45,453 nt of DNA. It comes from a virus. Below are positions 128-45,453 of the stretch, piece by piece (position 1 is the first letter of the stretch; the number at the start of each line of letters is the position of its first letter). The DNA lies in the IMG/VR virus record IMGVR_UViG_3300031555_001699, positions 1 through 45,453 of that record; one strand, written 5' to 3'. The position numbers were made by a program, and so were the translations under genes. The notes below the pieces were generated by a model, which did not search any database, was not told the DNA's origin, and was given only the letters and a program-made list of their open reading frames with translations.

Positions 128-236
128 CAAGGCGCTGATCCGCAGCATCACCTACAACAAGACCCAGCGCCGCGCCGGCAAGAACGCAGACAAGCAGACC
201 GGAATAACCCTTGAGTATGACCTGATTTTCCAGTAA
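1..236 (+). CDS. int: Large serine recombinase (integrase), C-terminal end; continuation across the circular junction of the ORF starting at 44030
   Basis: ORF 24-236 is in the same frame as the open-ended ORF 44030-45453 once base 1 is mapped onto 45327; stop TAA 234-236; joined product about 510 aa. Confidence 0.9.
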   Translation, partial: EATAPDLMDQAYEAWRQIVPRSSTVSEAYRRAPDNATKNALLKALIRSITYNKTQRRAGKNADKQTGITLEYDLIFQ

Positions 237-239
237 AAA

Positions 240-289
240 CACTGGTAGCTTGCGCATAATAATGAATTATTATAGCCAAGATACCAGTG
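240..289. other. Candidate attP core: 50-bp imperfect palindrome with central GA dinucleotide, 4 bp after the integrase stop
   Basis: CACTGGTA GCTTGCGC ATAATAAT GA ATTATTAT AGCCAAGA TACCAGTG; outer 8 bp and inner 8 bp arms are perfect inverted repeats, 20 of 24 arm positions symmetric, centre 264-265. Confidence 0.45.
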
Positions 290-313: not shown

Positions 314-343
314 TTGACGGCGTTGATGTTATCATGCTATAAT
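314..343 (+). promoter_or_regulatory. Sigma-70/SigA-type promoter for a short rightward RNA
   Basis: -35 TTGACG 314-319, 18-nt spacer, extended -10 TGcTATAAT (TG 335-336, TATAAT 338-343). Confidence 0.6.
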
Positions 344-349
344 GACGGC

Positions 350-449
350 AGGGTGCCCGCTACCTCCCAAAGGCGGATCACCTCGCTTTATGGGTGAGCT
401 GAACCGTCTACAACTGGTATTTGTAGGCGGTTCGCGGTTTTATTTCTTC
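350..449 (+). ncRNA. Candidate about 100-nt antisense/antitoxin sRNA (type I TA-like)
   Basis: Bounded by the promoter at 314-343 and the intrinsic terminator at 401-449. No SD-led ORF. Its 3' end is antisense to the 3' end of the 25-aa peptide gene. It contains CACCTCGCTTT (379-389), complementary to the SD region of that gene. Confidence 0.4.
401..449 (+). terminator. Rho-independent terminator (plus strand), overlaps the stop codon of the minus-strand peptide gene
   Basis: 13-bp stem GAACCGTCTACAA (401-413) / TTGTAGGCGGTTC (421-433) with one G-U pair, 7-nt loop, then GCGGTTTTATTTCTTC. Confidence 0.65.
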
Positions 450-517
450 AGTGCAAGCACAGACACAATAATTTCCGCGACAGTAAGCACAATTATAAGC
501 AATTCAAAATCACTCAT
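440..517 (-). CDS. 25-aa hydrophobic peptide MSDFELLIIVLTVAEIIVSVLALKK; type I toxin / holin-like-toxin candidate
   Basis: ATG 517, TAA 442-440, SD GAGGTG 8 nt upstream; single TM helix with acidic N-end and KK C-end; below the size cutoff of the ORF track. Confidence 0.5.
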   Translation of the reverse strand: MSDFELLIIVLTVAEIIVSVLALKK

Positions 518-523
518 CCGTGC

Positions 524-557
524 AACACCTCGCTTTCCTTAGTGATTGCGAGGTGTT
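524..557 (-). promoter_or_regulatory. 5'-UTR hairpin sequestering the SD of the 25-aa peptide gene
   Basis: Perfect 10-bp inverted repeat AACACCTCGC (524-533) / GCGAGGTGTT (548-557), 14-nt loop; in the minus-strand RNA the 3' arm contains the GAGGUG SD. Confidence 0.5.
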
Positions 558-607
558 TCCGCCTTTATACGGGCTTTCCCTGCCAGAGGCCTGGTGCCTC
601 AGCCGGT

Positions 608-636
608 ATATTATCACAGAAAAACCGCCCAGTCAA
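608..636 (-). promoter_or_regulatory. Promoter for the peptide (toxin-like) mRNA
   Basis: Minus strand -35 TTGACT (636-631), 17-nt spacer, -10 TAATAT (613-608). Confidence 0.5.
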
Positions 637-644
637 GGGCGGTT
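623..644 (-). terminator. Rho-independent terminator ending the leftward cargo operon
   Basis: Stem AACCGCCC (623-630) / GGGCGGTT (637-644); on the minus strand it is followed by TTTTTCTGTG; the -35 of the next promoter sits in the loop. Confidence 0.6.
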
Positions 645-678: not shown

Positions 679-780
679 CTACCAGATTGCCGGGGTCTTG
701 CGGAAGGCTTTCACCTTCCGCGGGCGCTCTGTCAGCGCCGCAGCCAGGGTCAACGCTGGCATCAGGATCAGCAGGCTCAT
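679..780 (-). CDS. 33-aa small membrane peptide MSLLILMPALTLAAALTERPRKVKAFRKTPAIW
   Basis: ATG 780 overlaps the TGA (779-777) of the upstream gene (ATGA coupling); SD GAGGTG 8 nt upstream; stop TAG 681-679; translated codon by codon by hand; not in ORF track. Confidence 0.45.
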   Translation of the reverse strand: MSLLILMPALTLAAALTERPRKVKAFRKTPAIW

Positions 781-19395: not shown

Positions 19396-22300
19396 ATGGC
19401 TGTCCAGAAAAAGAAAAATGAAACGCGTGATGAGGTGCTTTCGAGAGTTTCGAAAGAGTACAATATCACGCCTAAGGCTTCTAAGGCATCTACGAAGGGT
19501 ACTATAATAGCATCTTCCGTTGGTTCTGAACGTACCTATAAAAAGGCAGGCAGCAAGAGCCAGCAGCAGGAAAACAACAAAAACATTGCCCAGAGTGTTG
19601 CGCAGAAGTATAACGCTACCAGAAAGAATACTGGCAAGTGGTATTCTGGGAATACCCCTACGGCGCGAGAGACCATGGCTCGCATGTTTGAAAGGGCAAA
19701 CGGCGATACTGGTTTCTTCAACAAGATGAATGAAATGTTTGCTGCCGAGCAACAGGATCGCGGTTCCGTAATTTACAACCCCTACGCGCAGGCGACCAAC
19801 TACAAGGCGATCGACGGCCTGCGTCAGCTGGGCGTGGAAGTGCCGGAAACCATCTCTGATGAATGGATCGACAGCATGTGGCGGCAGTACGGCCAGTATT
19901 CCCGTGAGACGACCACTGGCTATGGCCCCGGCGCCCCGACCAAGGCTTCTACGGTACAGAACGACATCGCTTACTGGGTGAACACCCTGATGGAGGATAA
20001 GGAAGCCACCAACCTGGCCGAGACTCAGATGCAGGACATGTACACCGAGGTAGAGTACCTGGCCAAGCAGGGTTATAACGATGATGAGATCCTGAAGCGC
20101 GTGAAAGCGAACAAGGATTACAATGCGCTGTGGAAGATGGACGAAGCACGCCTCGCCGGCGATGCTGTGCGCCTGAACCGCAAGGTGAACTACAGCGGCG
20201 ACGACACGATCTACGGCATGATCTGGGCTGCACGCAATGACGGCGGCACCGGCGATTACTTTGTCGATTCCGTGAAGGCGCTGATGGGCCATGGCAACCA
20301 GTATAAGTACGACTCTGCCAGCGCTGCAGCGCTCGACCCGAGCAATTACGAGGGATATTCTCCGTATGTCCGCGGCACCATGCATGAAATGAACATGAAG
20401 TATGGTGTTGACAGCTTCGACCAGACTTGGCTGGAAGCGAACCGCAGCATGCTGAGTGACCCTGAGAAGGCAGAGGACTGGCGCAACATCAAGGAAGCTG
20501 TTGAGCGTTCCGAGTCTGCGGAGAAAGAACTGGCTGCACTGGATCAGTGGCTGGAAAAGCAGATTGCCAGCGGCAGGAAGGATGCACAGAGCCTGGCGGA
20601 TGAACTGACCGCGATGATCAGCGACGGCGACGAGATCCGCTACACTGACGCAGACGGCAAGATGGAAACCATCAAGCTGAGCACGCTGGCCAAGATGGAG
20701 GATTACCGCGCTGACGGCACGTATGTGAACCTGGGCTACGGCGTGGACTTCAACCTGCCGCAGTACATCGCCAAGGCGACCGCCATGTACGACGAGCATG
20801 CAACCGCAGCAGCGGAAACTGAAGCAGAGACCGGTGGCGGTGTGTTCAAGGCTATCGGCGACGGCATCGCAAGCGCCTGGAGATGGCTGACCGGTGACAA
20901 GGGCGCGATGGAGGACGTGATTGACGCCCAGAAGACCGGCGACGTTACGGAGTTTGCGAGCATTGAGGACGCGGCCAGAAAGTACGCCAAGGATATGTTC
21001 GGCGTGGACATCACCGGCGAGCTGCCGGCGCATGTGGAAGCAGCGCTGAAGGATGCGATCGCCAAGGCCAACAAGGCGGACCTGCCCGGCGCCAGCAAGG
21101 AAGATATCGATGCTGCGAACACGGCAGCTGGTGTACTGCAGGATATGTTCAGCGAGGTTATCGCCAACCCGGACATGAGAGCGCAGGAGACCGCAGAGGC
21201 TCCGGCGGAGGAGCCGGCGGAAGCCAACTACAAGGCTCAGCAGGCGTACACCACCGTATTTGAGAAGCAGCCGGAAGAGCCGCGCGAGGGCATGGTGGAG
21301 ATGGTGGCAGAGCCGACGGCATACACCGCAGGCGCTGCAGAACCTGCAGAAGCGAGCCCCGCTGCGGCAAGCTATGAGAGCATGCTGCAGGGCGGCGAGT
21401 GGGACAACGATGCGTTCGTATGGGCGCTCAATGAAAGTTCCAGCCCGAAAGCGATCAAAGCCGAGCTCGGCCAGGCGATCATTGACCACAGAGCCAAGGG
21501 TACTGAGCTTACCGGCCTGGCGAAGAGCTGGTGGAATAAGTTCGGTGGCCTGGTGGACGACATCGGCGGCCCGACGGACTATAACCAGCTGGTTCGATAC
21601 GAGATGGGCTTGGACGAGTACGACAGCCGCAAGGCTTACGGTACGCAGGTGTTCGATCTGCTTCAGGCGAACAGCGAGGCGTATGATTCTTCTGCGATCG
21701 ATGCTGCATCGTGGGCAAACAACCTGATTACCATCTCCGGCATGGCAGAAGCCATCAACAGAGCTGCCGGCGGCGAGCGCGCTACGGACGAGGTTGCCGA
21801 TCGATTCCTGGCCCAGAGTGGCCTGCAGGCAACGGTTGACGGCATGCTCAATACCATTGAGGGCAGCATGGAACGCCAAGCTGCTGACAAGGCTGAGGAG
21901 AATCGCCAGCGTACGACTGCGAGCGTGGGTGTGATCCAGCGTATGAACAGCGGCACGATGACCGAGGATGATTTACTGGCATACGTGGATATCATGAGCA
22001 CGGACATCAGTAAGACCGCTGCGCAGGATAAGACCTATGCTGCTGCCAACGCATACATCATCGATGCGCTGAGTTTTGATAGCATTGCCGAGAGCGGCAT
22101 GCGCTTTACTTATGGCGACAAGGCTGTTGACGCGTCCTACGGCAAGGAGATGGTCCTGAATGAAGGCGCATCCATCTACAGCACGGGCGTTACTGCACTG
22201 GCACAGGACACCCTGAACACGCATATGAAGTACGCCGCTGCATGCGGCATGACGCTGGAACAGTTTTATACCCAGTTCCCGGATCTGGCACGGACGCCTG

Positions 22301-25300
22301 AACAGATCGTAGCGGAAGCGCGCAGCGAGTATAACGGCACCTGGACCGAGTTCGGCCATACGATCGACGGCCTGATAGCTGCCAACGACAGCATCTTCAA
22401 CGCCGGTGAGGGCGCAGGCGCTCCCGGGGATGAAAAGGAAGATGTGCTGAGCTTCAGCGACAGCCTGGTGCTCGCGTTCGACAAGCTCCGGGCGACTAAT
22501 GCGCTGAACTGGGACAAGACGCTCTACATGATGCAGTACGCCTGGCGTGACGAAGAGATGGAGCAGGGCATACTGCTCGATCAGTACGGTGGCCGCACTG
22601 CGCTGGCTGCTGAGTGGGACAAGTTTGATGCTGAGCGCGAAGAGCAGCTGCGCAAGACCTACGAGAACGATATCACTGCCAAGCAGAGTGGCATCAGCTA
22701 CGAGGACTGGCGGCTGGAGAACACCGACAAGCAGCTGGACGAGGTGCGCGCCAAGCGCGAGACTGCAACGGATATCCTGGAGCTGGGCGATCCGGCAAGG
22801 CTGCGCGCAGAGCAGGGTATCATTGAGAAGACCGGCAATGTAGCGAACATCGATAAGCTGGTAGCCGAGTACGGCAGCGAGTTTGACAAGGCTGTCTACG
22901 ATGGTGCGACCAGCCTGATGCAGACTGGCCAGTTTATGTTCATTAGCACTGTGCTGGGCGGCGGATACATGGCTTCCCTGGCTGCAACGCTGACCAGCTC
23001 CGGCAGCGACGCATACGACCGATTCATCCAGACCGGCGACTATGACGCAGCCCTGGCAAGCAGCATCGGTGCATGGCTCGTGAACGCGGCTATTGAGAAG
23101 ATGAGCTTCGAGAGGTACATGCCTGAGAGCCTTGGCGGTAGCCGCACGCAGAAGATGCAGGCAGTGCAGAGCATGCTGCAGCGCGAGGGCATGTATAGTA
23201 TGCTCAAAGATCCGAAGAAGCTGTCCAAGGCAGCAACGGCTGTGATGGAGGCAATCGCCACTGCCGGCGTGAACAGCGCCAGTGAAGGTCTGGAGGAGAC
23301 CCTGCAGTACATTGTGGACTCTTTTGCGGACAACATTGCATACGGCGACAATATCTGGCTGACCGATGAGCAGGTATCCGGCATTGATGATACCTTCGTA
23401 GCGGGTACTGCAATGGGCGCAGTGCTCGATGTGGGCACCAACCTGGTGTTTGGTCGTCCGAAGTTCACTGACGAGCTGGGCAACGCGATCTCTAAGGCCG
23501 AAGCACAGATACGTCCCGAACACGATGGTGTTCTGCTGAACGAGGCGATCAAGTTTGAGGCGACGAGCATGGCGTATGTGAACAGCACAGACGCACTCGC
23601 CCAGATTGAGAGCAGCAGCGAGAACGCCGCCAAGCAGCAGGCGGAGCAGGAGCTGCAGGCTGTTGAAGCTGAATTGCAGGAAACGGAAGCAAAACTTGCA
23701 AGCGTGCAGGCGGAACATGATACCGCTATCATGGCGCTGGAAGATGTGAACGTAGAGATGCAGGACAGCGATGCGTTTACCGAGGACATGGGCAAGCGCA
23801 TGACCGCAGCAGCGACCGAGGTTGACCGAACCACGGCTGAGCTCAGAAAGGTCAAGGACGACCTGAGCAGCGCACAGGGCCGCAGGGAAGCCGCCCAGCA
23901 GAAGCTAGACGATGCGACCGCCAAGGTTCAGGCGATGTACGATCAGGTGATGGACGAGGCCAAGCAGAAGTACACCCAGATTGTGACCGACAAGTACTAC
24001 GCAGGCGACAGCGACGAACAGCGCGCCGCCGGCGAGGCGTACCAGGCAGCCTGCGCGAATCTGGAAGAAGCAAAGGCCGCACTGGCTACAGTGAAAGCTG
24101 ATGAGAATGCCGGTGCGAAGGAGCGCGGCAGGGCACTGCTGGATGTGGATAAGGCGACCGAGGCTGTGGAAGCAGCCAAGGCTGAGATGGATGCGGCATA
24201 CGCCCAGAGCCCGGAGGGCAAGGTGGAAGCTGCGACCAATAAGGCGCTGGAGGATGCGCAGAAAGCAGCGGACGATGCAGCGGCAGCAGCAGAGGCTGAC
24301 CCGATGAACAGCCGCAAGCAGCTGGCAGCAGAGCATGCACAGGCGCAGCTGGATGTGATCCGAGCCAAGCAGGAGATGGAAGAGAAGCGCTCCGGCATCA
24401 GCTTCCGCCTGAAGAGCCCGGATAGCAGCGAGCGCGAGGCAGCCGTTGGCGAGTGGAAGGCTGCCCAGCAGAAGGTAACCGATGCTGAAGAGCATGCCAA
24501 GGCCGTCGAGACCGAGTTCAACGAGACGGACACCCAGAAGAACCTGCAGACCGCGATCGACAACATGAAGCAGTACACCAACGAGCAGCTGTTGTTTGAG
24601 AGCGAGGAGGGGCACGAGGATGCTGTACGGGCCTATGCTGAACTGCAGGTGGCGCAGGCTGCAGCAGAAGTTGAAAATGCCTGGAATGGCATGTTGAAGG
24701 ACGGAGCCAGTGGACTGTCCGCTTACCAAGATGCAAGAAATAAGTATAATTCTGCTATTGACAATAAAAATGCCATGAATTATACTAAAAATGGGGAGGT
24801 ATATGATTATGGCAATGAAAGCGAAGGAATATATGGCGAAAATGTACGCGGAACATCCGGAATTGCCGGAGATGGTAGCGGAAGTAGAACGACTGTACGG
24901 GGCTCGGATTCAGTTCCCCTGTATGGTGATCGAGGCATTGCTCGACGGAATGACGCCGGCGGAAGTGGCAGCGGACAGCGCGTTGATGGATCTGTAAGGT
25001 ATGCGTCTACGGCGGGTATTACAGATGTAACTGCAACACCCGAGGAATATATTCAAGCATTGGATGCAGCAAAGGCAGCGCCCCCGGAAGACGGTCATCA
25101 GGTAAGCCCGCATAAGGTAGAAGAAGTGATGCGGGGAGATCTGCGTCCGTTCCTGACCAGCGATAAACTTGCAGGCTTCGCTGTAGAAGCCAATGGCAAC
25201 ATTACTGGTGTTTTTAGGAACCCCAAGAGTAAACTGGGCCCAGTAATGGACGATATGATGCTTTCTGCGATTCAAGAAGGTGGCAATCGATTGGATTGTT

Positions 25301-28300
25301 ATGCCGGTGACCTGTTTAACGATGGACTCAATAACAAAGACCGCATCGGCCCCCTCGTGAACAAGTATGCAAAGTATGGATTTAAGCCCGTGGCGGTTGT
25401 GAAATACAATGCTGAATACGCAGAAAGTGACAAGGTGCAGGATGTTATATTTTTCATCCATAACGGCAAGAGTGTAATGGAAATTAAGGCCGACCTTGAG
25501 GCGGGTGACTATGAACAGTACACGCCTGATGACCTGCTTGCGCTTAAAACGTTTGGATTGGATGACCCCGATGCTTACGACAATGCAGCCAAATACCGCG
25601 ATGGTTTGATTGAACAGCACAATTCTGACATCCAGGCCTGGCGAAATATCGGCGACGGCTTCGGTGATCACCGTACCCCCGGCAGGACCGGAGAGACCAC
25701 CACTGCTGACCGCAACCCGATCGAGATCCTGAGCGATCTGACCAGGCGGATCGGCGTGGGCTATAACCCCGGCGGCGACATGAGCACGAACGGCAGACGC
25801 TTGCCGCGTGCAGTGCAGGGCTTCTACAGCCGACATGCACGGGCGATCACGACCAGAGGCGCGAACGCCGGAGACCTGGAGGTCGGCCTGCATGAGTTTG
25901 GACATGCTGTACAGCAGCGACTGCCGAACCTGCATGCCAACACGCAGCTGTTGAACGGCCTGAGCCAGGGCGTGCGCAATGCATACGACCAGCAGGAGCT
26001 GGACGGCGAAGCGATCGCTGAGTTCGTGGTAGACTACATCTTCAACCGCGACGAGGCGGTGCGCCAGGCAGGCGCTCAGTTCGTGCAGGACTTCGAGGAC
26101 ATGCTGGCCAACGACCGCACGTTGTATGATGCAATCATGGACGCCAGCCACCAGACCGAGCTCTGGAACAACGCAGACACCGGCAGCAAGATCGGCGCCA
26201 TGACGAAGGACGGCAACGACCCGCGCCGCGGCCAGATCGGCAACTGGCTCTCCCGCACGCTGCGCAACGTGGAAACCGCCGTTGCGGACCTGACCGCGCC
26301 GGCAGACCTGGTGAGCAGGGACTTCCGCAGGAGAGCACTGTACAGTATGCACGCAAGCCGCAGGGCAGACGTGAGCCTGACCCGGTTCCTGATCGACCCG
26401 CAGGGCCGGAACATCGGCCAGAGCCTTGCAGAACGATTCTATCGCGCAGGCGTGACAGAGGGCGACCAGGCTGAGGTGAGCCGCTACGCGCTGGCCAAGC
26501 ATGCACTTGACCGCCGTGCGCAGAACAGGGACGTATTCACCGAGGCTGAGTTTCCGACCGCAGAACTGGAAGCATACGTTGCTGATATAGAGGCGAACCA
26601 CCAGAACATCGTGGCCGGCGCAAACGCACTGACCAGCTTCTGGAACGACTTCATGGATGCATGGTGGGTCGGCACCGGCATGATTGACGCAGAGGATGTG
26701 GCGACCATGCGCGCGATGTACCCGCATTACGTGCCCACGTTCCGCGTGATGGGCGAGAACTTCAACCAGTACGGCGGCGGCAACGCCCGCTTCCAGATGC
26801 GCAGAGCCGTAGTGGGCGGCAGCAGCCTGGAAGTGATCGATCCGATCGCCAGCATCGTAAAGATGACCCAGCAGATGACCAGCACGGTTACTCAGAACCA
26901 GCTGATGCGCGAGTTCCACGAAGAGTGGCGGCGCGGCGGCCTGGGCGACATCGCTGAGGACGTGACCCAGCAATATCGCGTGCAGCGTAACGACACAACC
27001 AACATGCAGGCAGCTCTGGACGCGATCGCAGCGACCGGCATGGTTGATCCTGCGCTGATGGGCGACGCCTATGCACAGATGCTGAATCTGCAGGAGCACT
27101 GGTATGGAACCGGACAGAACTACGATGCGAACGTTGTAAGCGGCGTAGACGAGAACGGCAACCGCTTCTTCTACAAGATCAAGGACAGAGGCCTGTACAA
27201 CCTGCTGAGCGGCGCGGCAAACAGGAGCGGCGACATGGGCGCAATCCTGCGGACCGTGCGCAACATCAAGAATGGCTTCACGAAAATGACCACCGGCAGC
27301 AACCCGCTGTTCGCGCTCAAGAACCTGCAGCGCGATATCCAGGCCAGCGTGAATACCGGCACGCACAGCATGACCTACGCAGACGGCATATATCACTGGG
27401 CACGCGCCTTCTATGAAGTGCTGACCGGCAGTGAAACCTACCGCGACTGGCAGGCGATGGGCGGCGGCGAGCACACCCGCTTCAATACTGAGCTGAACGG
27501 CCAGGAAGCAGGCAGAGTGGTGCGCGAACTGAGCAGAGATCTGATGCGCGGCAGGGAGAACCGCAGAGGCAACTTCCAAACCCGGAACACGGCACTGGAG
27601 AACATCAGCAATGTTCTGACCTGGGAAGAACTGAACAATGCCATTGAAAACGCCAGCAGATATGTGGAGTACCGCTTCGGTAGGCATGACCTGAACACCG
27701 ATGAAGGCCGCAGAGAGGCATTCATGGCCAGCCAGGATGTGACCACAAATTTCGGCACTCACGGCGCAAGCGGCGTAATCAAGGTGCTCAATCAGGTGGT
27801 TCCCTTCATGAACGCCACCATCCAGGGCCTGAATAAGGACGCGAACATCATCCGCGACGTATTTAGCACTGATGCGAACAGGCGCAGACAGGCAGCGCCG
27901 AAGGCTGCCAAGACCATGATGAACACTGCCCTGACCGCCATGCTGCAGTACGCACTGCTGAAGATGTTCGGCAGCAACGAGGACGACGAGGACTACGCAC
28001 TGCTGAGCCAGGAGATGCGCACCGGCAACCTGATCATCCCGATCGGCAAGGGCGCAATGGAGGAACTGGGCGACGTGATCGGATTCGACAAGCCCTACAT
28101 CCGTATCCCGATCGCGCAGGTCCCGCTGGCGCAGGGCATGTATGCCAAGGCACTGGATATCGTATCCGACGTGGCGAACTACAGCCCGATGGAAGTTGAC
28201 ATGTGGCGCGCAACGAAGAGCATCCTTGCTGACAGCATACCGGACGGCACTGTGTTCCAGGCGATCAGCGATGCAGCCAACAACCGCACCTGGTACGGCG

Positions 28301-28968
28301 GCGAGATCGAGAGCGAGTACATGCGCAACTACAGCGTGACCAACCGCTACGACAGCGATACTCCGAATGCGATCATCCAGCTCGGCCAGAGCCTGAATGT
28401 ATCCCCGGCCAAGCTGGACTACCTGCTGAACCAGTACAGCGGCTTCGCCGGCAAGATTTTGATGCCGCTGATCAGTGCTGGCAGACTGGATGGCGAGTAC
28501 AGCTTGCGCAATGCGGGTGAGAACCTGGTCTACAACGTACTGAAGAATTACACGATCGACCCGGTGAGCAGCAACGACCTGAGCACCAGCTACAGTTCCG
28601 CCAAGGATACGATCAGCCAGATCGTAGCTGACGGCAAGGCAGGCAAGCCGATGGGTAACCTGGCCTACAGCGCTGACCCGGAAGAGGCTTACGACGCTGC
28701 CGAGTACCTGAGCAAAGAGTTCGCCGCCCTAGACAAGGAAATCTCCGCACTGTGGAGCGAGTACAACGCCATCAAGGAAAGCGACCTGAGCGACGGCGAC
28801 AAGGCCAGGCAGATGCGCGACCTGCGCAGGAACTACATTGTGCCCCTCCAGCAGGATGCGATGGCGCTGTATGAGGAGTATAAGATGCAGTACATCGATG
28901 CTGACTCGCTGGCGCTGGAGATCTATGGCCGGCTGCCTGGCGGCCTAACCAGACCCACTCTCGACTAA
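19396..28968 (+). CDS. Giant 3,190-aa polyvalent-type protein (probable virion-packaged/ejected multi-domain effector)
   Basis: Single uninterrupted ORF with SD GGGAGGG. Segments: basic N-terminus; Gly-rich hydrophobic segment (nt about 22930-23000); Ala/Glu/Lys coiled coil of about 380 aa (nt about 23600-24720); G/S/R linker; acetyltransferase-like segment (nt about 25140-25470); zincin motif GLHEFGHAV (HEFGH = nt 25891-25905); about 1,000-aa C-terminal domain. Confidence 0.85.
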   Translation: MAVQKKKNETRDEVLSRVSKEYNITPKASKASTKGTIIASSVGSERTYKKAGSKSQQQENNKNIAQSVAQKYNATRKNTGKWYSGNTPTARETMARMFERANGDTGFFNKMNEMFAAEQQDRGSVIYNPYAQATNYKAIDGLRQLGVEVPETISDEWIDSMWRQYGQYSRETTTGYGPGAPTKASTVQNDIAYWVNTLMEDKEATNLAETQMQDMYTEVEYLAKQGYNDDEILKRVKANKDYNALWKMDEARLAGDAVRLNRKVNYSGDDTIYGMIWAARNDGGTGDYFVDSVKALMGHGNQYKYDSASAAALDPSNYEGYSPYVRGTMHEMNMKYGVDSFDQTWLEANRSMLSDPEKAEDWRNIKEAVERSESAEKELAALDQWLEKQIASGRKDAQSLADELTAMISDGDEIRYTDADGKMETIKLSTLAKMEDYRADGTYVNLGYGVDFNLPQYIAKATAMYDEHATAAAETEAETGGGVFKAIGDGIASAWRWLTGDKGAMEDVIDAQKTGDVTEFASIEDAARKYAKDMFGVDITGELPAHVEAALKDAIAKANKADLPGASKEDIDAANTAAGVLQDMFSEVIANPDMRAQETAEAPAEEPAEANYKAQQAYTTVFEKQPEEPREGMVEMVAEPTAYTAGAAEPAEASPAAASYESMLQGGEWDNDAFVWALNESSSPKAIKAELGQAIIDHRAKGTELTGLAKSWWNKFGGLVDDIGGPTDYNQLVRYEMGLDEYDSRKAYGTQVFDLLQANSEAYDSSAIDAASWANNLITISGMAEAINRAAGGERATDEVADRFLAQSGLQATVDGMLNTIEGSMERQAADKAEENRQRTTASVGVIQRMNSGTMTEDDLLAYVDIMSTDISKTAAQDKTYAAANAYIIDALSFDSIAESGMRFTYGDKAVDASYGKEMVLNEGASIYSTGVTALAQDTLNTHMKYAAACGMTLEQFYTQFPDLARTPEQIVAEARSEYNGTWTEFGHTIDGLIAANDSIFNAGEGAGAPGDEKEDVLSFSDSLVLAFDKLRATNALNWDKTLYMMQYAWRDEEMEQGILLDQYGGRTALAAEWDKFDAEREEQLRKTYENDITAKQSGISYEDWRLENTDKQLDEVRAKRETATDILELGDPARLRAEQGIIEKTGNVANIDKLVAEYGSEFDKAVYDGATSLMQTGQFMFISTVLGGGYMASLAATLTSSGSDAYDRFIQTGDYDAALASSIGAWLVNAAIEKMSFERYMPESLGGSRTQKMQAVQSMLQREGMYSMLKDPKKLSKAATAVMEAIATAGVNSASEGLEETLQYIVDSFADNIAYGDNIWLTDEQVSGIDDTFVAGTAMGAVLDVGTNLVFGRPKFTDELGNAISKAEAQIRPEHDGVLLNEAIKFEATSMAYVNSTDALAQIESSSENAAKQQAEQELQAVEAELQETEAKLASVQAEHDTAIMALEDVNVEMQDSDAFTEDMGKRMTAAATEVDRTTAELRKVKDDLSSAQGRREAAQQKLDDATAKVQAMYDQVMDEAKQKYTQIVTDKYYAGDSDEQRAAGEAYQAACANLEEAKAALATVKADENAGAKERGRALLDVDKATEAVEAAKAEMDAAYAQSPEGKVEAATNKALEDAQKAADDAAAAAEADPMNSRKQLAAEHAQAQLDVIRAKQEMEEKRSGISFRLKSPDSSEREAAVGEWKAAQQKVTDAEEHAKAVETEFNETDTQKNLQTAIDNMKQYTNEQLLFESEEGHEDAVRAYAELQVAQAAAEVENAWNGMLKDGASGLSAYQDARNKYNSAIDNKNAMNYTKNGEVYDYGNESEGIYGENVRGTSGIAGDGSGSRTTVRGSDSVPLYGDRGIARRNDAGGSGSGQRVDGSVRYASTAGITDVTATPEEYIQALDAAKAAPPEDGHQVSPHKVEEVMRGDLRPFLTSDKLAGFAVEANGNITGVFRNPKSKLGPVMDDMMLSAIQEGGNRLDCYAGDLFNDGLNNKDRIGPLVNKYAKYGFKPVAVVKYNAEYAESDKVQDVIFFIHNGKSVMEIKADLEAGDYEQYTPDDLLALKTFGLDDPDAYDNAAKYRDGLIEQHNSDIQAWRNIGDGFGDHRTPGRTGETTTADRNPIEILSDLTRRIGVGYNPGGDMSTNGRRLPRAVQGFYSRHARAITTRGANAGDLEVGLHEFGHAVQQRLPNLHANTQLLNGLSQGVRNAYDQQELDGEAIAEFVVDYIFNRDEAVRQAGAQFVQDFEDMLANDRTLYDAIMDASHQTELWNNADTGSKIGAMTKDGNDPRRGQIGNWLSRTLRNVETAVADLTAPADLVSRDFRRRALYSMHASRRADVSLTRFLIDPQGRNIGQSLAERFYRAGVTEGDQAEVSRYALAKHALDRRAQNRDVFTEAEFPTAELEAYVADIEANHQNIVAGANALTSFWNDFMDAWWVGTGMIDAEDVATMRAMYPHYVPTFRVMGENFNQYGGGNARFQMRRAVVGGSSLEVIDPIASIVKMTQQMTSTVTQNQLMREFHEEWRRGGLGDIAEDVTQQYRVQRNDTTNMQAALDAIAATGMVDPALMGDAYAQMLNLQEHWYGTGQNYDANVVSGVDENGNRFFYKIKDRGLYNLLSGAANRSGDMGAILRTVRNIKNGFTKMTTGSNPLFALKNLQRDIQASVNTGTHSMTYADGIYHWARAFYEVLTGSETYRDWQAMGGGEHTRFNTELNGQEAGRVVRELSRDLMRGRENRRGNFQTRNTALENISNVLTWEELNNAIENASRYVEYRFGRHDLNTDEGRREAFMASQDVTTNFGTHGASGVIKVLNQVVPFMNATIQGLNKDANIIRDVFSTDANRRRQAAPKAAKTMMNTALTAMLQYALLKMFGSNEDDEDYALLSQEMRTGNLIIPIGKGAMEELGDVIGFDKPYIRIPIAQVPLAQGMYAKALDIVSDVANYSPMEVDMWRATKSILADSIPDGTVFQAISDAANNRTWYGGEIESEYMRNYSVTNRYDSDTPNAIIQLGQSLNVSPAKLDYLLNQYSGFAGKILMPLISAGRLDGEYSLRNAGENLVYNVLKNYTIDPVSSNDLSTSYSSAKDTISQIVADGKAGKPMGNLAYSADPEEAYDAAEYLSKEFAALDKEISALWSEYNAIKESDLSDGDKARQMRDLRRNYIVPLQQDAMALYEEYKMQYIDADSLALEIYGRLPGGLTRPTLD
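24791..24997 (+). CDS. Embedded +1-frame ORF (60-68 aa) inside the giant gene; possible overlapping gene or relic
   Basis: GGGGAGG 24793-24799 precedes ATG 24803/24809/24815; product MAMKAKEYMAKMYAEHPELPEMVAEVERLYGARIQFPCMVIEALLDGMTPAEVAADSALMDL has ordinary composition. Hand-counted GC3 is 66 percent in this frame versus 35 percent in the giant-ORF frame over the same bases. Confidence 0.3.
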   Translation: MGRYMIMAMKAKEYMAKMYAEHPELPEMVAEVERLYGARIQFPCMVIEALLDGMTPAEVAADSALMDL

Positions 28969-44029: not shown

Positions 44030-45453
44030 ATGGATATTTACGCAGACTACCTGCGCAAGTCCCGGTCAGATGAGCAGGCCGAGGCCCGCGGCGAGGGCGA
44101 TGTACTGGCCCGGCACCGCAAGACGCTGCAGGAGCTGGCCGCCTACAACGGGCACATGCTCGTTGCCGAATACGCCGAAGTCGCCAGCGGCGACAGCCTC
44201 GCAGCCAGGCCGGAGGCGCAACGCCTGCTGCTGGATGTGATGGCAGGCAAGTATACCGGCGTTTACTGTATGGCCCTTGACCGACTCAGCCGCGGCGCTG
44301 CAGAGGATCAGGCCGCCGTGATCCGGGCCTTCCAGGCCTCCGGCACACTGCTGATTACGCCCGAGAAGGTCTATGACTTCACCAACGCCGCCGACGAGGA
44401 TTTCGGCGAGCTGCGCCTGATGTTCAGCCGCATTGAGCACAAGACCATCAAGCGCCGCATGTACGCAGGCCGCGAGCGCTCCGCCCGTGATGGCTGGTAT
44501 ATCGGCGCGCGCATCCCGTTCGGATACGCCAAGGTACCCGCCCAGGGCAAGGACGGCCCCACGCTTAAGATCATCCCCGAGCAGGCTGAGCTCGTCCGCG
44601 CCATGTTCGAGGCCTACGCCGACGGCAAGAGCTCGCACCATATCGCCGACATGCTCAACGCGCAGCCCGTCAAGCCCAACTACAGCGACACCTGGACACC
44701 GTCCACTATCCGCAACATTCTCCGCAATCCGCTGTACATCGGCAAAATCTCCTGGGGCAAGCGCATCTCCAGACCGGCCCCCGACGGCAGCGCACACCGC
44801 GTCGTCAACAGCCGCGCTATCCTGGCCGACGGCAGGCATGAGCCCATCATCACTCAGGCCCTGTGGGACGCTGTGCAGGCCCGCCTTGAGCGCAACCCTG
44901 CACCGACCATCTCTGAGGGCCTCCAGAATCCCCTACAAGGGCTTGTGCGCTGCGGCCTATGCGGTTGTCTAATGCAGCGCAGCCCGGCCCAGAAGAGCCC
45001 TTCTGGGCGCTCTCAGCCCGCAATACTCAAATGCACTACGCATGGATGCAAGCAAATCCGGTCTGATCTAGCTGTGATCGAGGATATGATCCTGCAGAGC
45101 ATGGATGCATGCTATGGCCATGAAGGCGAGCTTTCCCCGGTGCAGATCCAGCAGCGCAAAGACCGCCAGAAGGCTGCCAAGCTGATCTTTGACCAGATCA
45201 AGCAGGCAGAAGCGCAGCAGAGCCGCCAGGCGGACTTATTAGAACAGGGTGTGTACACGGTCGAGGATTTTATCAGCCGCAGAAACGCGCTGTCTGAGAG
45301 GCTCAGAGAGCTTCACAGACGCTACGACGAGGCGACAGCGCCCGACCTGATGGATCAGGCCTATGAGGCGTGGCGGCAGATCGTCCCGCGGAGCAGCACT
45401 GTCAGCGAGGCCTACAGGCGCGCACCTGACAACGCAACCAAGAATGCATTGCT
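44030..45453 (+). CDS. int: Large serine recombinase (integrase), N-terminal 474 codons; open at the window end and continues at 1-236
   Basis: ATG 44030 seven nt after GAAGGGAGG. Hand translation MDIYADYLRKSRSDEQ...ALDRLSRG (resolvase catalytic domain), GWYIGARIPFGY recombinase domain, Cys cluster CGLCGCLMQR...LKCTTHGC zinc ribbon, C-terminal coiled coil. Not in the ORF track because no stop is reached. Confidence 0.92.
   Translation, partial: MDIYADYLRKSRSDEQAEARGEGDVLARHRKTLQELAAYNGHMLVAEYAEVASGDSLAARPEAQRLLLDVMAGKYTGVYCMALDRLSRGAAEDQAAVIRAFQASGTLLITPEKVYDFTNAADEDFGELRLMFSRIEHKTIKRRMYAGRERSARDGWYIGARIPFGYAKVPAQGKDGPTLKIIPEQAELVRAMFEAYADGKSSHHIADMLNAQPVKPNYSDTWTPSTIRNILRNPLYIGKISWGKRISRPAPDGSAHRVVNSRAILADGRHEPIITQALWDAVQARLERNPAPTISEGLQNPLQGLVRCGLCGCLMQRSPAQKSPSGRSQPAILKCTTHGCKQIRSDLAVIEDMILQSMDACYGHEGELSPVQIQQRKDRQKAAKLIFDQIKQAEAQQSRQADLLEQGVYTVEDFISRRNALSERLRELHRRYDEATAPDLMDQAYEAWRQIVPRSSTVSEAYRRAPDNATKNAL
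45327..45453. repeat. Terminal overlap copy 2 (identical to 1-127)
   Basis: See copy 1. Confidence 0.95.

Follow-up and report, generated by a model that had tools for sequence, protein, structure and literature searches.

The 45,453-nt stretch of viral DNA analysed here in full (the window; positions 1 to 45,453 of the IMG/VR record IMGVR_UViG_3300031555_001699) contains a compact locus with two predicted converging transcription units, namely a minus-strand gene for a hydrophobic, toxin-like peptide of 25 amino acids (aa) and a plus-strand gene for a predicted small RNA (sRNA) whose end overlaps that of the peptide gene (Table 1). The original prediction, made from the sequence alone, had read this arrangement as a type I toxin-antitoxin-like locus of the txpA or bsrG kind. 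Its component parts, i.e. the minus-strand promoter, the 10-bp hairpin around the Shine-Dalgarno (SD) sequence, the 25-aa open reading frame (ORF), the plus-strand promoter, the terminator and a repeated 11-mer, were all found where it had placed them, and the overall reading was supported by a family of homologous ORFs, by a link of that family to Hol_Tox proteins and by the conservation of both the convergent promoter and the SD sequestration.

The toxin-like gene has an extended -10 promoter and a predicted leader of about 84 nt; the -35 hexamer falls within the loop formed by a terminator-like hairpin (644-623). The promoter aligns with the toxin promoters of homologous loci identified in this work (designated L plus a number), namely L039, L088, L114, L037 and L146/L150, the last two of which also possess an analogous 5' hairpin of the toxin mRNA. 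Within the leader, AACACCUCGC (557-548) pairs with GCGAGGUGUU (533-524) to form a perfect 10-bp cis hairpin with a calculated stability of -16.9 kcal/mol. The SD pairing probability in this leader was 1.0, against 0.58 when the upstream sequence was shuffled, and the predicted toxin mRNA as a whole folded with a z-score of -5.7 relative to shuffled versions. The original prediction had designated 526-536 as the cis anti-SD arm; the plus strand there is in fact the complement of the SD arm and the arm proper is 548-557, but the 11-nt complementarity to the SD that it had described in the sRNA is correct.

Promoter and terminator predictions agree on a plus-strand RNA of about 100 nt lacking an SD-led ORF, as originally proposed. 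This sRNA folded with a z-score of -2.8 relative to shuffled versions, and its minimum free energy (MFE) structure exposes AUCACC as a loop. On the minus strand, the next terminator-like structure beyond the hairpin shared by the two genes is the palindrome 289-240 with its T5, and the toxin mRNA may, according to these models, read through to it (289-235). The predicted 3' overlap of the two RNAs is at least about 50 nt, increasing to about 100 nt with toxin read-through, in which case the whole sRNA would be complementary to the 3' untranslated region (UTR) of the toxin mRNA. Cofolding of the sRNA with the toxin mRNA gave an extended 3' duplex.

Table 1 Predicted features of the convergent peptide and sRNA genes and their immediate flanks.
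Feature	Position	Strand	Details
sRNA promoter, TTGACG-18-(TG)c-TATAAT	314-343	+	11/12 match, extended -10
Predicted antitoxin sRNA, ~100 nt, starting GGCAGGG, no SD-led ORF	347-449	+	Promoter and terminator prediction
Same-sense copy of the leader anti-SD element, AAAGGCGGAUCACCUCGC (369-386), with the 11-mer CACCUCGCUUU (379-389)	369-389	+	z = 6.7
sRNA intrinsic terminator, hairpin 400-434 (14 pairs) and T-tract 437-449	400-449	+	Overlaps the toxin stop codon and last codons
Toxin-like ORF, 25 aa, MSDFELLIIVLTVAEIIVSVLALKK	440-517	-	One hydrophobic helix and KK tail
SD arm GCGAGGUGUU (SD GAGGUG), fully paired, 6 nt 5' of the ATG	524-533	-	Folding
Leader element AAAGGCGGAAACACCUCGC, containing the cis anti-SD arm (557-548)	548-566	-	Folding and leader/sRNA comparison
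5'-terminal stem-loop of the toxin mRNA, GAGGC-ACCAG-GCCUC	586-600	-	Present in every MFE structure
Toxin promoter, TTGACT-17-(TG)a-TAATAT	608-636	-	9/12 match and extended -10
Terminator-like hairpin closing the upstream minus-strand operon	623-644	-	8-bp stem, 6 GC pairs, then TTTTCTGT
Imperfect palindrome of ~50 bp (240-289), then T5 on the minus strand	235-289	-	Hairpin -24.3 kcal/mol, then UUUUU

A sub-threshold alignment to the BsrG model of Rfam (RF01412) superposed the SD hairpins and ATG codons of the two sequences, followed by 12 in-frame codons (BsrG consensus M-T-A-F-E-A-F-M-L-M-L-T-F; window M-S-D-F-E-L-L-I-I-V-L-T-V). From this alignment a search pattern was built (GAGG, 5-10 nt, ATG, x-x-[FY]-E-x-[LF]-[IM], seven hydrophobic positions) and run against one genome per GTDB species, which gave at least 120 loci; at least 127 matches were listed, 123 of 127 being ORFs of 21-44 aa. 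Positions that the pattern left free were also conserved, namely S/T at position 2, D/T/V at 3, T/A at 12 and a Lys/Arg-rich tail. In 133 close pairs of family ORFs, differences at codon positions 1, 2 and 3 numbered 484, 184 and 1081, with 864 synonymous against 520 nonsynonymous changes, a pattern from which we infer that the family ORFs are translated and under purifying selection. The family hosts were Lachnospiraceae, Ruminococcaceae, many rumen and gut Clostridia metagenome-assembled genomes (MAGs), Paenibacillus, Halobacillus, Staphylococcus, Veillonellaceae and Sphaerochaeta, and tandem copies occurred in L084 (three) and in L039, L042, L061, L068 and L116 (two each). Modules of this family were also present outside Firmicutes, in MAGs of Spirochaetes (L030, L043, L113, L130 and L137, from Sphaerochaeta and Sphaerochaetaceae). 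A few were binned as Bacteroidaceae or Tannerellaceae, which may reflect mis-binning or horizontal transfer.

The family separates into branches that differ in their relation to known toxins. All 20 tested members of one of them, the sister group A2 (MT[VI]FE..., MSTYESLMIM...), match the Pfam family Hol_Tox (PF16935; best E 2e-14), and members of this group also have sub-cutoff NCBIfam matches to PepG1, a type I toxin, and ComI. The closest relatives of the window peptide (the MSD[YF]E group, A1, 23-29 aa) share with it the lack of a PF16935 match. Profile-profile comparison by hhalign nevertheless aligned A1 and A2 end to end with 97.2% probability (E = 3.3e-11), a score that is inflated because the same DNA motif ascertained both sets.

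The other direct searches returned no relatives: no match to the peptide was obtained by tblastn in phage and plasmid collections, none to positions 240-700 by blastn against phages, none to the strict back-translated N-terminus MSDFELLIIV in viral and genome contigs, and none to a relaxed N-terminal motif in viral contigs. A metagenome scan that made use of the shared terminator arm yielded seven loci aligning with the window; since the metagenome pattern scan omitted the source contig even though its pattern matches the window, absences from that collection are weak evidence.

Neither the convergent promoter and its spacing nor the SD sequestration or the alignment of modules had been built into the search pattern, and these features therefore provide independent evidence. 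Among the matches listed, an opposite-strand promoter directed toward the ORF and scoring at least 10 was present at 83 of 106 loci, compared with 14 of 106 for a sense-strand control; at a score of at least 11 the figures were 57 and 2. In most loci, 67-103 nt separated the stop codon from the predicted start of the antisense RNA (mode 91-94); the distance in the window is about 90 nt. Toxin promoters were weaker, with scores of at least 10 in only 21 of the 106 loci, which fits an antitoxin made in excess. The SD was paired with a probability above 0.8 in 71 of 106 leaders, against about 13 expected from shuffled upstream sequence (Wilcoxon p = 5e-10).

The window could moreover be aligned module for module with L039 (both copies), L088, L114, L037 and the metagenomic loci L144-L150, the toxin promoter, the GGCAGG leader start, the SD, the ORF, the terminator (GAACCGCC...GGCGGTTCGC) and the sRNA promoter all being in register. 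The GGCAGG start of the sRNA and its spacing were conserved in these relatives, and the pairing of the terminator stem is kept by compensatory changes at 7 of 13 pairs (six relatives). Bidirectional terminators flanked by A and T tracts occur in many members of the family.

The 11-mer CACCTCGCTTT occurs exactly twice in the 45 kb (379-389 and 526-536), even with one mismatch allowed, and is part of an 18/19-nt same-sense match between the sRNA (369-386, AAAGGCGGAUCACCUCGC) and the toxin leader (566-548, AAAGGCGGAAACACCUCGC); both RNAs begin with GGCAGGG. At the DNA level, this match reads as an inverted duplication of the promoter-proximal leader of the toxin gene. Across the family, same-sense similarity between leader and sRNA had a mean z-score of 3.7 and exceeded 3 in 43 of 81 loci, compared with a mean of 0.6 and 6 of 81 loci for the complementary orientation. 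The first ~35 nt of the sRNA correspond to leader positions of about -62 to -33, in many cases with the anti-SD arm among them (81 loci, L024-L150), and the SD-sequestering nucleotides lie within the shared element in 25 of the 41 loci in which such an element is clear. Judged by these comparisons, the sRNA is in general a paralog of the leader that retains an "orphan" anti-SD arm, and the pattern suggests that the antitoxins arose through inverted duplication of the toxin promoter and leader.

Two other descriptions of the sRNA were tried and rejected. An sRNA 5' domain antisense to the leader, in the manner of the direct repeats of par, was discarded as the strong RNAduplex scores are explained by same-sense paralogous hairpins. 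An exact SD repeat lying downstream was likewise rejected as a family-wide trait, with 56 of 75 family sRNAs lacking any perfect complement of at least 5 nt to the SD of their own locus. The original prediction had made its reading depend on conservation of both the SD hairpin and the sRNA complementarity in relatives; the former is family-wide but the latter is not.

In the window itself, the anti-SD segment of the sRNA is unusually complete. The 3' tail of Firmicute 16S rRNA reads GGAUCACCUCCUUUCU, and the sRNA arm GGAUCACCUC-G-CUUU nearly reproduces it. The extra G of this arm matches an extra C in the flank of the toxin SD, and pairing with the SD is therefore stronger for the sRNA than for the 16S tail (core duplex of -19.0 against -16.1 kcal/mol). 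None of 5,540 non-cognate pairings between sRNAs and SDs of homologous loci reached 11 nt. In the two closest relatives, L146 and L150, the SD reads GGGGGUGAUG instead, and their sRNAs carry CAUCACCCCC (10 nt perfect, L146) and CACCCCC (7 nt, L150) at the same position. A further candidate, that the sRNA anti-SD evolves together with the SD it belongs to, found no statistical support: cognate pairs were no better than non-cognate ones across the family (p = 0.37), and in the sub-lineage of the window the two averaged -18.0 and -18.0 kcal/mol (p = 0.49).

Taken together, we consider it probable, at roughly 80%, that the locus serves a temperate phage as an accessory type I toxin-antitoxin module, with a peptide of the TxpA/BsrH-BsrE "Hol_Tox" superfamily. 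On its sequence, it appears to be an ordinary representative of the TxpA/BsrH "holin-like toxin" type I family of Firmicutes in all but its lack of annotation. It has two of the general attributes of type I systems, i.e. a gene for a small (<60 aa) hydrophobic peptide and an adjacent predicted gene for a complementary antisense RNA; the peptide stays below the gathering score of PF16935 and is tied to that family by profile-level homology and by the shared N-terminal motif.

In such a module, the moderate minus-strand promoter would produce an mRNA for a 25-aa single-helix membrane peptide, intrinsically poorly translated owing to the upstream anti-SD arm that locks the SD in the 10-bp hairpin. 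The near-consensus plus-strand promoter would yield an abundant sRNA with a terminator overlapping the toxin gene's 3' end. RatA, SR4, SR5 and as-bsrH bind the 3' region of their toxin mRNAs and promote RNase III-dependent decay (PMC6562991, PMC3834814); by analogy, this sRNA would pair with the toxin mRNA 3' region and lead to RNase III-type decay, while the cis hairpin would keep the SD closed. More speculatively, the sRNA anti-SD arm GGAUCACCUCGCUUU, tethered by the 3' duplex, might clamp the SD whenever the cis hairpin opens, acting as a back-up translational block. A role in prophage stabilisation or exclusion, as proposed for the prophage type I systems of B. subtilis and C. difficile (PMC6562991, PMC6563280), seems likely by the same kind of analogy.

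Several observations weigh against this interpretation. The 25-aa peptide had no match in Pfam (even at E <= 10), NCBIfam or PHROG. The comparison with toxin-family profiles that the original prediction had proposed thus failed to give a direct match, the link to known toxins being made through profile-profile comparison of family branches, with the inflated score mentioned above. The Rfam BsrG model scored 16.8 bits, below its gathering threshold of 55 (E = 0.53 over 3 kb and 0.064 over 361 nt). The locus was 100% identical in the ten contigs carrying this phage (L001-L010), and variation within the phage thus holds no comparative information. The shared hairpin is followed by a T-tract in the sRNA direction only, and the toxin mRNA's 3' end is not defined by a T-tract. 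Some members of the family are also not overtly toxic, among them YhzE-2, and BsrE at native levels (PMC2887945, PMC6562991).

The dual-mode part of the interpretation meets energetic obstacles as well. The exchange of cis for trans pairing is uphill, since opening the cis hairpin costs 16.9 kcal/mol and opening the sRNA hairpin a further 11.8 kcal/mol for a gain of 19.0 kcal/mol. Cofolding, another computation that the original prediction had called for, returned the 3' duplex but placed the trans anti-SD pairing in no MFE structure, whether the toxin mRNA ended at ~396 or ~236, and the SD hairpin was the same in the models with and without sRNA. In the read-through model, the toxin leader paired with its own 3' UTR in a long-range 5'-3' closure, because of the leader/sRNA paralogy. 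The trans anti-SD claimed originally is thus real and non-random, with 7-10 nt kept in the two closest relatives, yet its pairing is not cognate-specific and, in these models, is predicted to be unable to displace the cis hairpin. It remains doubtful, in our estimation, that the sRNA was born throughout the family as an inverted duplication of the toxin promoter and leader and that the orphan arm of the window lineage came to mimic the 16S tail and, through its "private" G, to serve as a second, trans-acting SD lock tethered via the 3' overlap; if this were true, it would be a general way for type I antitoxins to come into being and to gain dual function.

The same parts could be assembled under a different main control, with the sRNA acting chiefly as a trans anti-SD repressor like RNA II of par/Fst. 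First contact would then occur at the shared terminator, after which CACCUCGCUUU would pair with AAAGCGAGGUG and block the ribosome, mRNA decay being secondary. Such a scheme would make sense of the 11-nt perfect complementarity, an outlier against the 5,540 non-cognate pairs and formed by an 11-mer present only twice in 45 kb, of the matches of 10 and 7 nt with which the L146 and L150 sRNAs follow their different SD at the same position, and of the stronger binding of the toxin SD by the sRNA than by the 16S tail. It would also suit the CACC in the loop of the sRNA hairpin, and has a model in the DRa/DRb repeats of par, which block ribosome binding (PMC4147584). We nevertheless regard it as rather unlikely, with the SD held in a perfect 10-bp cis hairpin, the anti-SD itself in a stem, a net energy that is unfavourable and a pairing missing from all cofold MFEs. 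Cognate specificity was absent in the family and in the sub-lineage (p = 0.37 and 0.49), the 56 of 75 family sRNAs described above lack a complement to their own SD, and the paralogy of leader and sRNA alone yields 8 of the 11 nt, the extra UUU serving also to close the sRNA's own hairpin.

The nature of the peptide leaves room for another reading, in which it is a phage membrane effector under antisense control rather than an addiction or abortive-infection toxin, with possible roles in ComI-like interference with competence or DNA uptake, in superinfection exclusion or in the modulation of lysis timing. The sub-cutoff matches of the sister group to ComI, a competence-inhibiting membrane peptide (bioRxiv 10.1101/2024.02.02.578676), the "holin-like" name of the Pfam family, the Hol_Tox genes without known function on prophages of group B Streptococcus (PMC11357604), the weak toxicity of several relatives (PMC2887945, PMC6562991) and the location beside the integrase gene, the usual position of a moron, all agree with it. 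We judge this reading improbable: double repression, by a cis SD lock and by an antisense promoter stronger than that of the toxin (11/12 against 9/12 matches), is the hallmark of a harmful product and recurs in the family, with 83 antisense against 21 toxin promoters scoring at least 10; the chromosomal tandem arrays are typical of type I toxin-antitoxin loci, and no endolysin or holin cassette adjoins the gene. That there is no functional module at all, the hairpins merely terminating flanking operons and the ORF and promoter-like hexamers having arisen by chance, is extremely improbable. The resemblance of hairpin 644-623 to a terminator of the upstream operon, the failure of gene callers to call the ORF on any of the ten contigs carrying this phage and the lack of a family-library match for the peptide would be expected if this were so, but they are outweighed by the coding signature in 123 homologous short ORFs, by the fixed distance from convergent promoter to stop codon, by the module-by-module alignment with relatives and by the 0.00 occurrences of the motif-plus-terminator pattern expected by chance in the window. 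On the comparative data, this reading is effectively refuted.

As a probable type I toxin-antitoxin module, the locus shares with txpA/RatA, bsrG/SR4, bsrE/SR5 and bsrH/as-bsrH of B. subtilis and with EF3263 of E. faecalis the motif M-[ST]-x-[YF]-E-x-[LF]-[MI], the hydrophobic helix and the basic tail. As in the TxpA/BsrH systems, the 3' end of the convergent antisense RNA overlaps that of the toxin gene, the SD is partly or fully sequestered and the genes are prophage-borne (PMC2887945, PMC6562991, PMC3834814). The B. subtilis systems work through 3' overlap and RNase III (PMC6562991), and SR4 is a known dual-function antitoxin (PMC3834814), of the type in which 3' binding by the sRNA alters the structure around the SD and makes its sequestration tighter. 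The TxpA family reaches Clostridiales, where members are annotated as "holin-like toxins", and includes EF3263 with its 3'-overlapping sRNA of ~110 nt, close to the ~100 nt of the window sRNA (PMC2887945); Hol_Tox genes have further been recorded on staphylococcal and streptococcal prophages (PMC6507118, PMC11357604). The window differs from the characterised TxpA/BsrH systems in its shorter peptide (25 against 29-59 aa), in its shorter sRNA (~100 against 160-220 nt), in the perfect 10-bp stem of its SD lock, which in bsrG has 4 bp, in a host that is a high-GC gut or rumen organism of the Clostridia type rather than one of the Bacilli, in being missed by the Pfam, NCBIfam and Rfam models and, possibly, in the same-sense copy of the toxin leader that makes up the 5' domain of its sRNA.

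The second relevant paradigm is par (Fst/RNA I-RNA II) of the E. faecalis plasmid pAD1, with convergent RNAs, a shared terminator and a dispersed repeat over the ribosome-binding site (PMC4147584). In the window as in par, one terminator hairpin is common to both convergent RNAs, the translation-initiation region is covered by a second, dispersed complementarity (the 11-mer in the window, DRa/DRb in par) and intramolecular structure limits translation (PMC4147584). The extra trans anti-SD copy, which the original prediction had called a neat dual-mode feature, has a precedent in these repeats of par (PMC4147584). Unlike par, the window has a peptide without an Fst/Ldr match in Pfam or NCBIfam, a single 11-nt repeat instead of two repeats, a terminator T-tract in one direction only and a trans pairing predicted not to outcompete the cis hairpin. 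The prophage systems of C. difficile, such as CD0956.2/RCd10 and CD0977.1/RCd11, for which a role in prophage stabilisation has been proposed, likewise combine small hydrophobic toxins with Lys-rich tails and convergent antisense RNAs (PMC6563280). Their toxins, at 34-59 aa, are longer than the window peptide; they form a different family, with no reported sequence homology to those of B. subtilis (PMC6563280).

The first and last 127 nt of the window are the same (1-127 = 45327-45453), and a gene for a large serine recombinase (integrase, 510 aa) is cut by the window boundary, with its C-terminus encoded at 24-236 and its N-terminus at the window's end. The 45,453-bp source contig is therefore a circular assembly of a temperate-phage genome, and the location "at the prophage end" in the original prediction is unsupported and appears to be an artefact of where the circle was cut. 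The integrase gene has the module just downstream, ahead of the packaging genes, in the order integrase, module, a minus-strand operon without assigned function (88-, 126-, 85- and 33-aa genes, upstream of the toxin), Arc-like repressor, VRR-NUC nuclease and terminase genes, a position consistent with an accessory ("moron") gene in a temperate phage. The palindrome between integrase and sRNA genes (CACTGGTA...ATAATAAT-GA-ATTATTAT...TACCAGTG) begins 4 nt past the integrase stop codon and could either terminate a read-through transcript of the toxin gene or serve the serine integrase as its attP site. Relatives of the integrase were only 28% identical, and a distantly similar serine recombinase was encoded near just 1 of 120 family loci among the matches listed.

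Neighbouring genes did not help to trace the module in other genomes, as had been hoped from synteny: the 85-aa protein had no relatives in IMG/VR, and in the loci encoding relatives of the 126-aa protein (L011-L020) different genes follow and the module is not present. The 126-aa relatives (phrog_11100, 46-63% identity) are found with genes for an 81-aa protein, an FtsK-like 242-aa ATPase, a 492-aa protein and helix-turn-helix regulators, a context suggestive of a conjugative or plasmid-like element and not of this phage. The 33-aa gene of the operon (679-780, minus strand; MSLLILMPALTLAAALTERPRKVKAFRKTPAIW) is a second small hydrophobic ORF, with a 4-nt overlap over the stop codon of its 85-aa neighbour; it was recognised as a gene in every metagenome contig and had no family match. 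Farther along, three operator-like copies of AT[CT]T[GA]CGCAGATAT with the palindromic core ATCTGC|GCAGAT (1849-1862, 1890-1903 and 1918-1931) sit between divergent near-consensus promoters and adjoin the Arc-like repressor gene (1959-2165), with which they probably constitute a genetic switch. The structural region of the 45-kb genome contains a single ORF of 3,190 aa (19396-28968, plus strand), which may encode a giant tail, tape-measure or host-interaction protein.

Prophage type I systems of Firmicutes, cis SD locks and dual-mode antitoxins are already established, and the current understanding of them is not overturned by these results. What is modestly new is the short MSD[YF]E branch and its breadth, the family-wide paralogy of leader and sRNA and the unusually complete, 16S-tail-like anti-SD arm of the window. 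The branch (23-29 aa, MSD[YF]E start) represents an annotation gap, a widespread part of the Hol_Tox/TxpA-BsrH group that is missed by gene callers, Pfam, NCBIfam and Rfam while extending over rumen and gut Clostridia, Lachnospiraceae, Ruminococcaceae and even Spirochaetes, and the peptide motif, combined with a convergent promoter some 90 nt beyond the stop codon, allows it to be recognised. The paralogy of leader and sRNA throughout the family hints at how antitoxin RNAs originate and, in this phage, the locus beside the integrase gene is probably a lysogeny-associated gene for stabilisation or exclusion.

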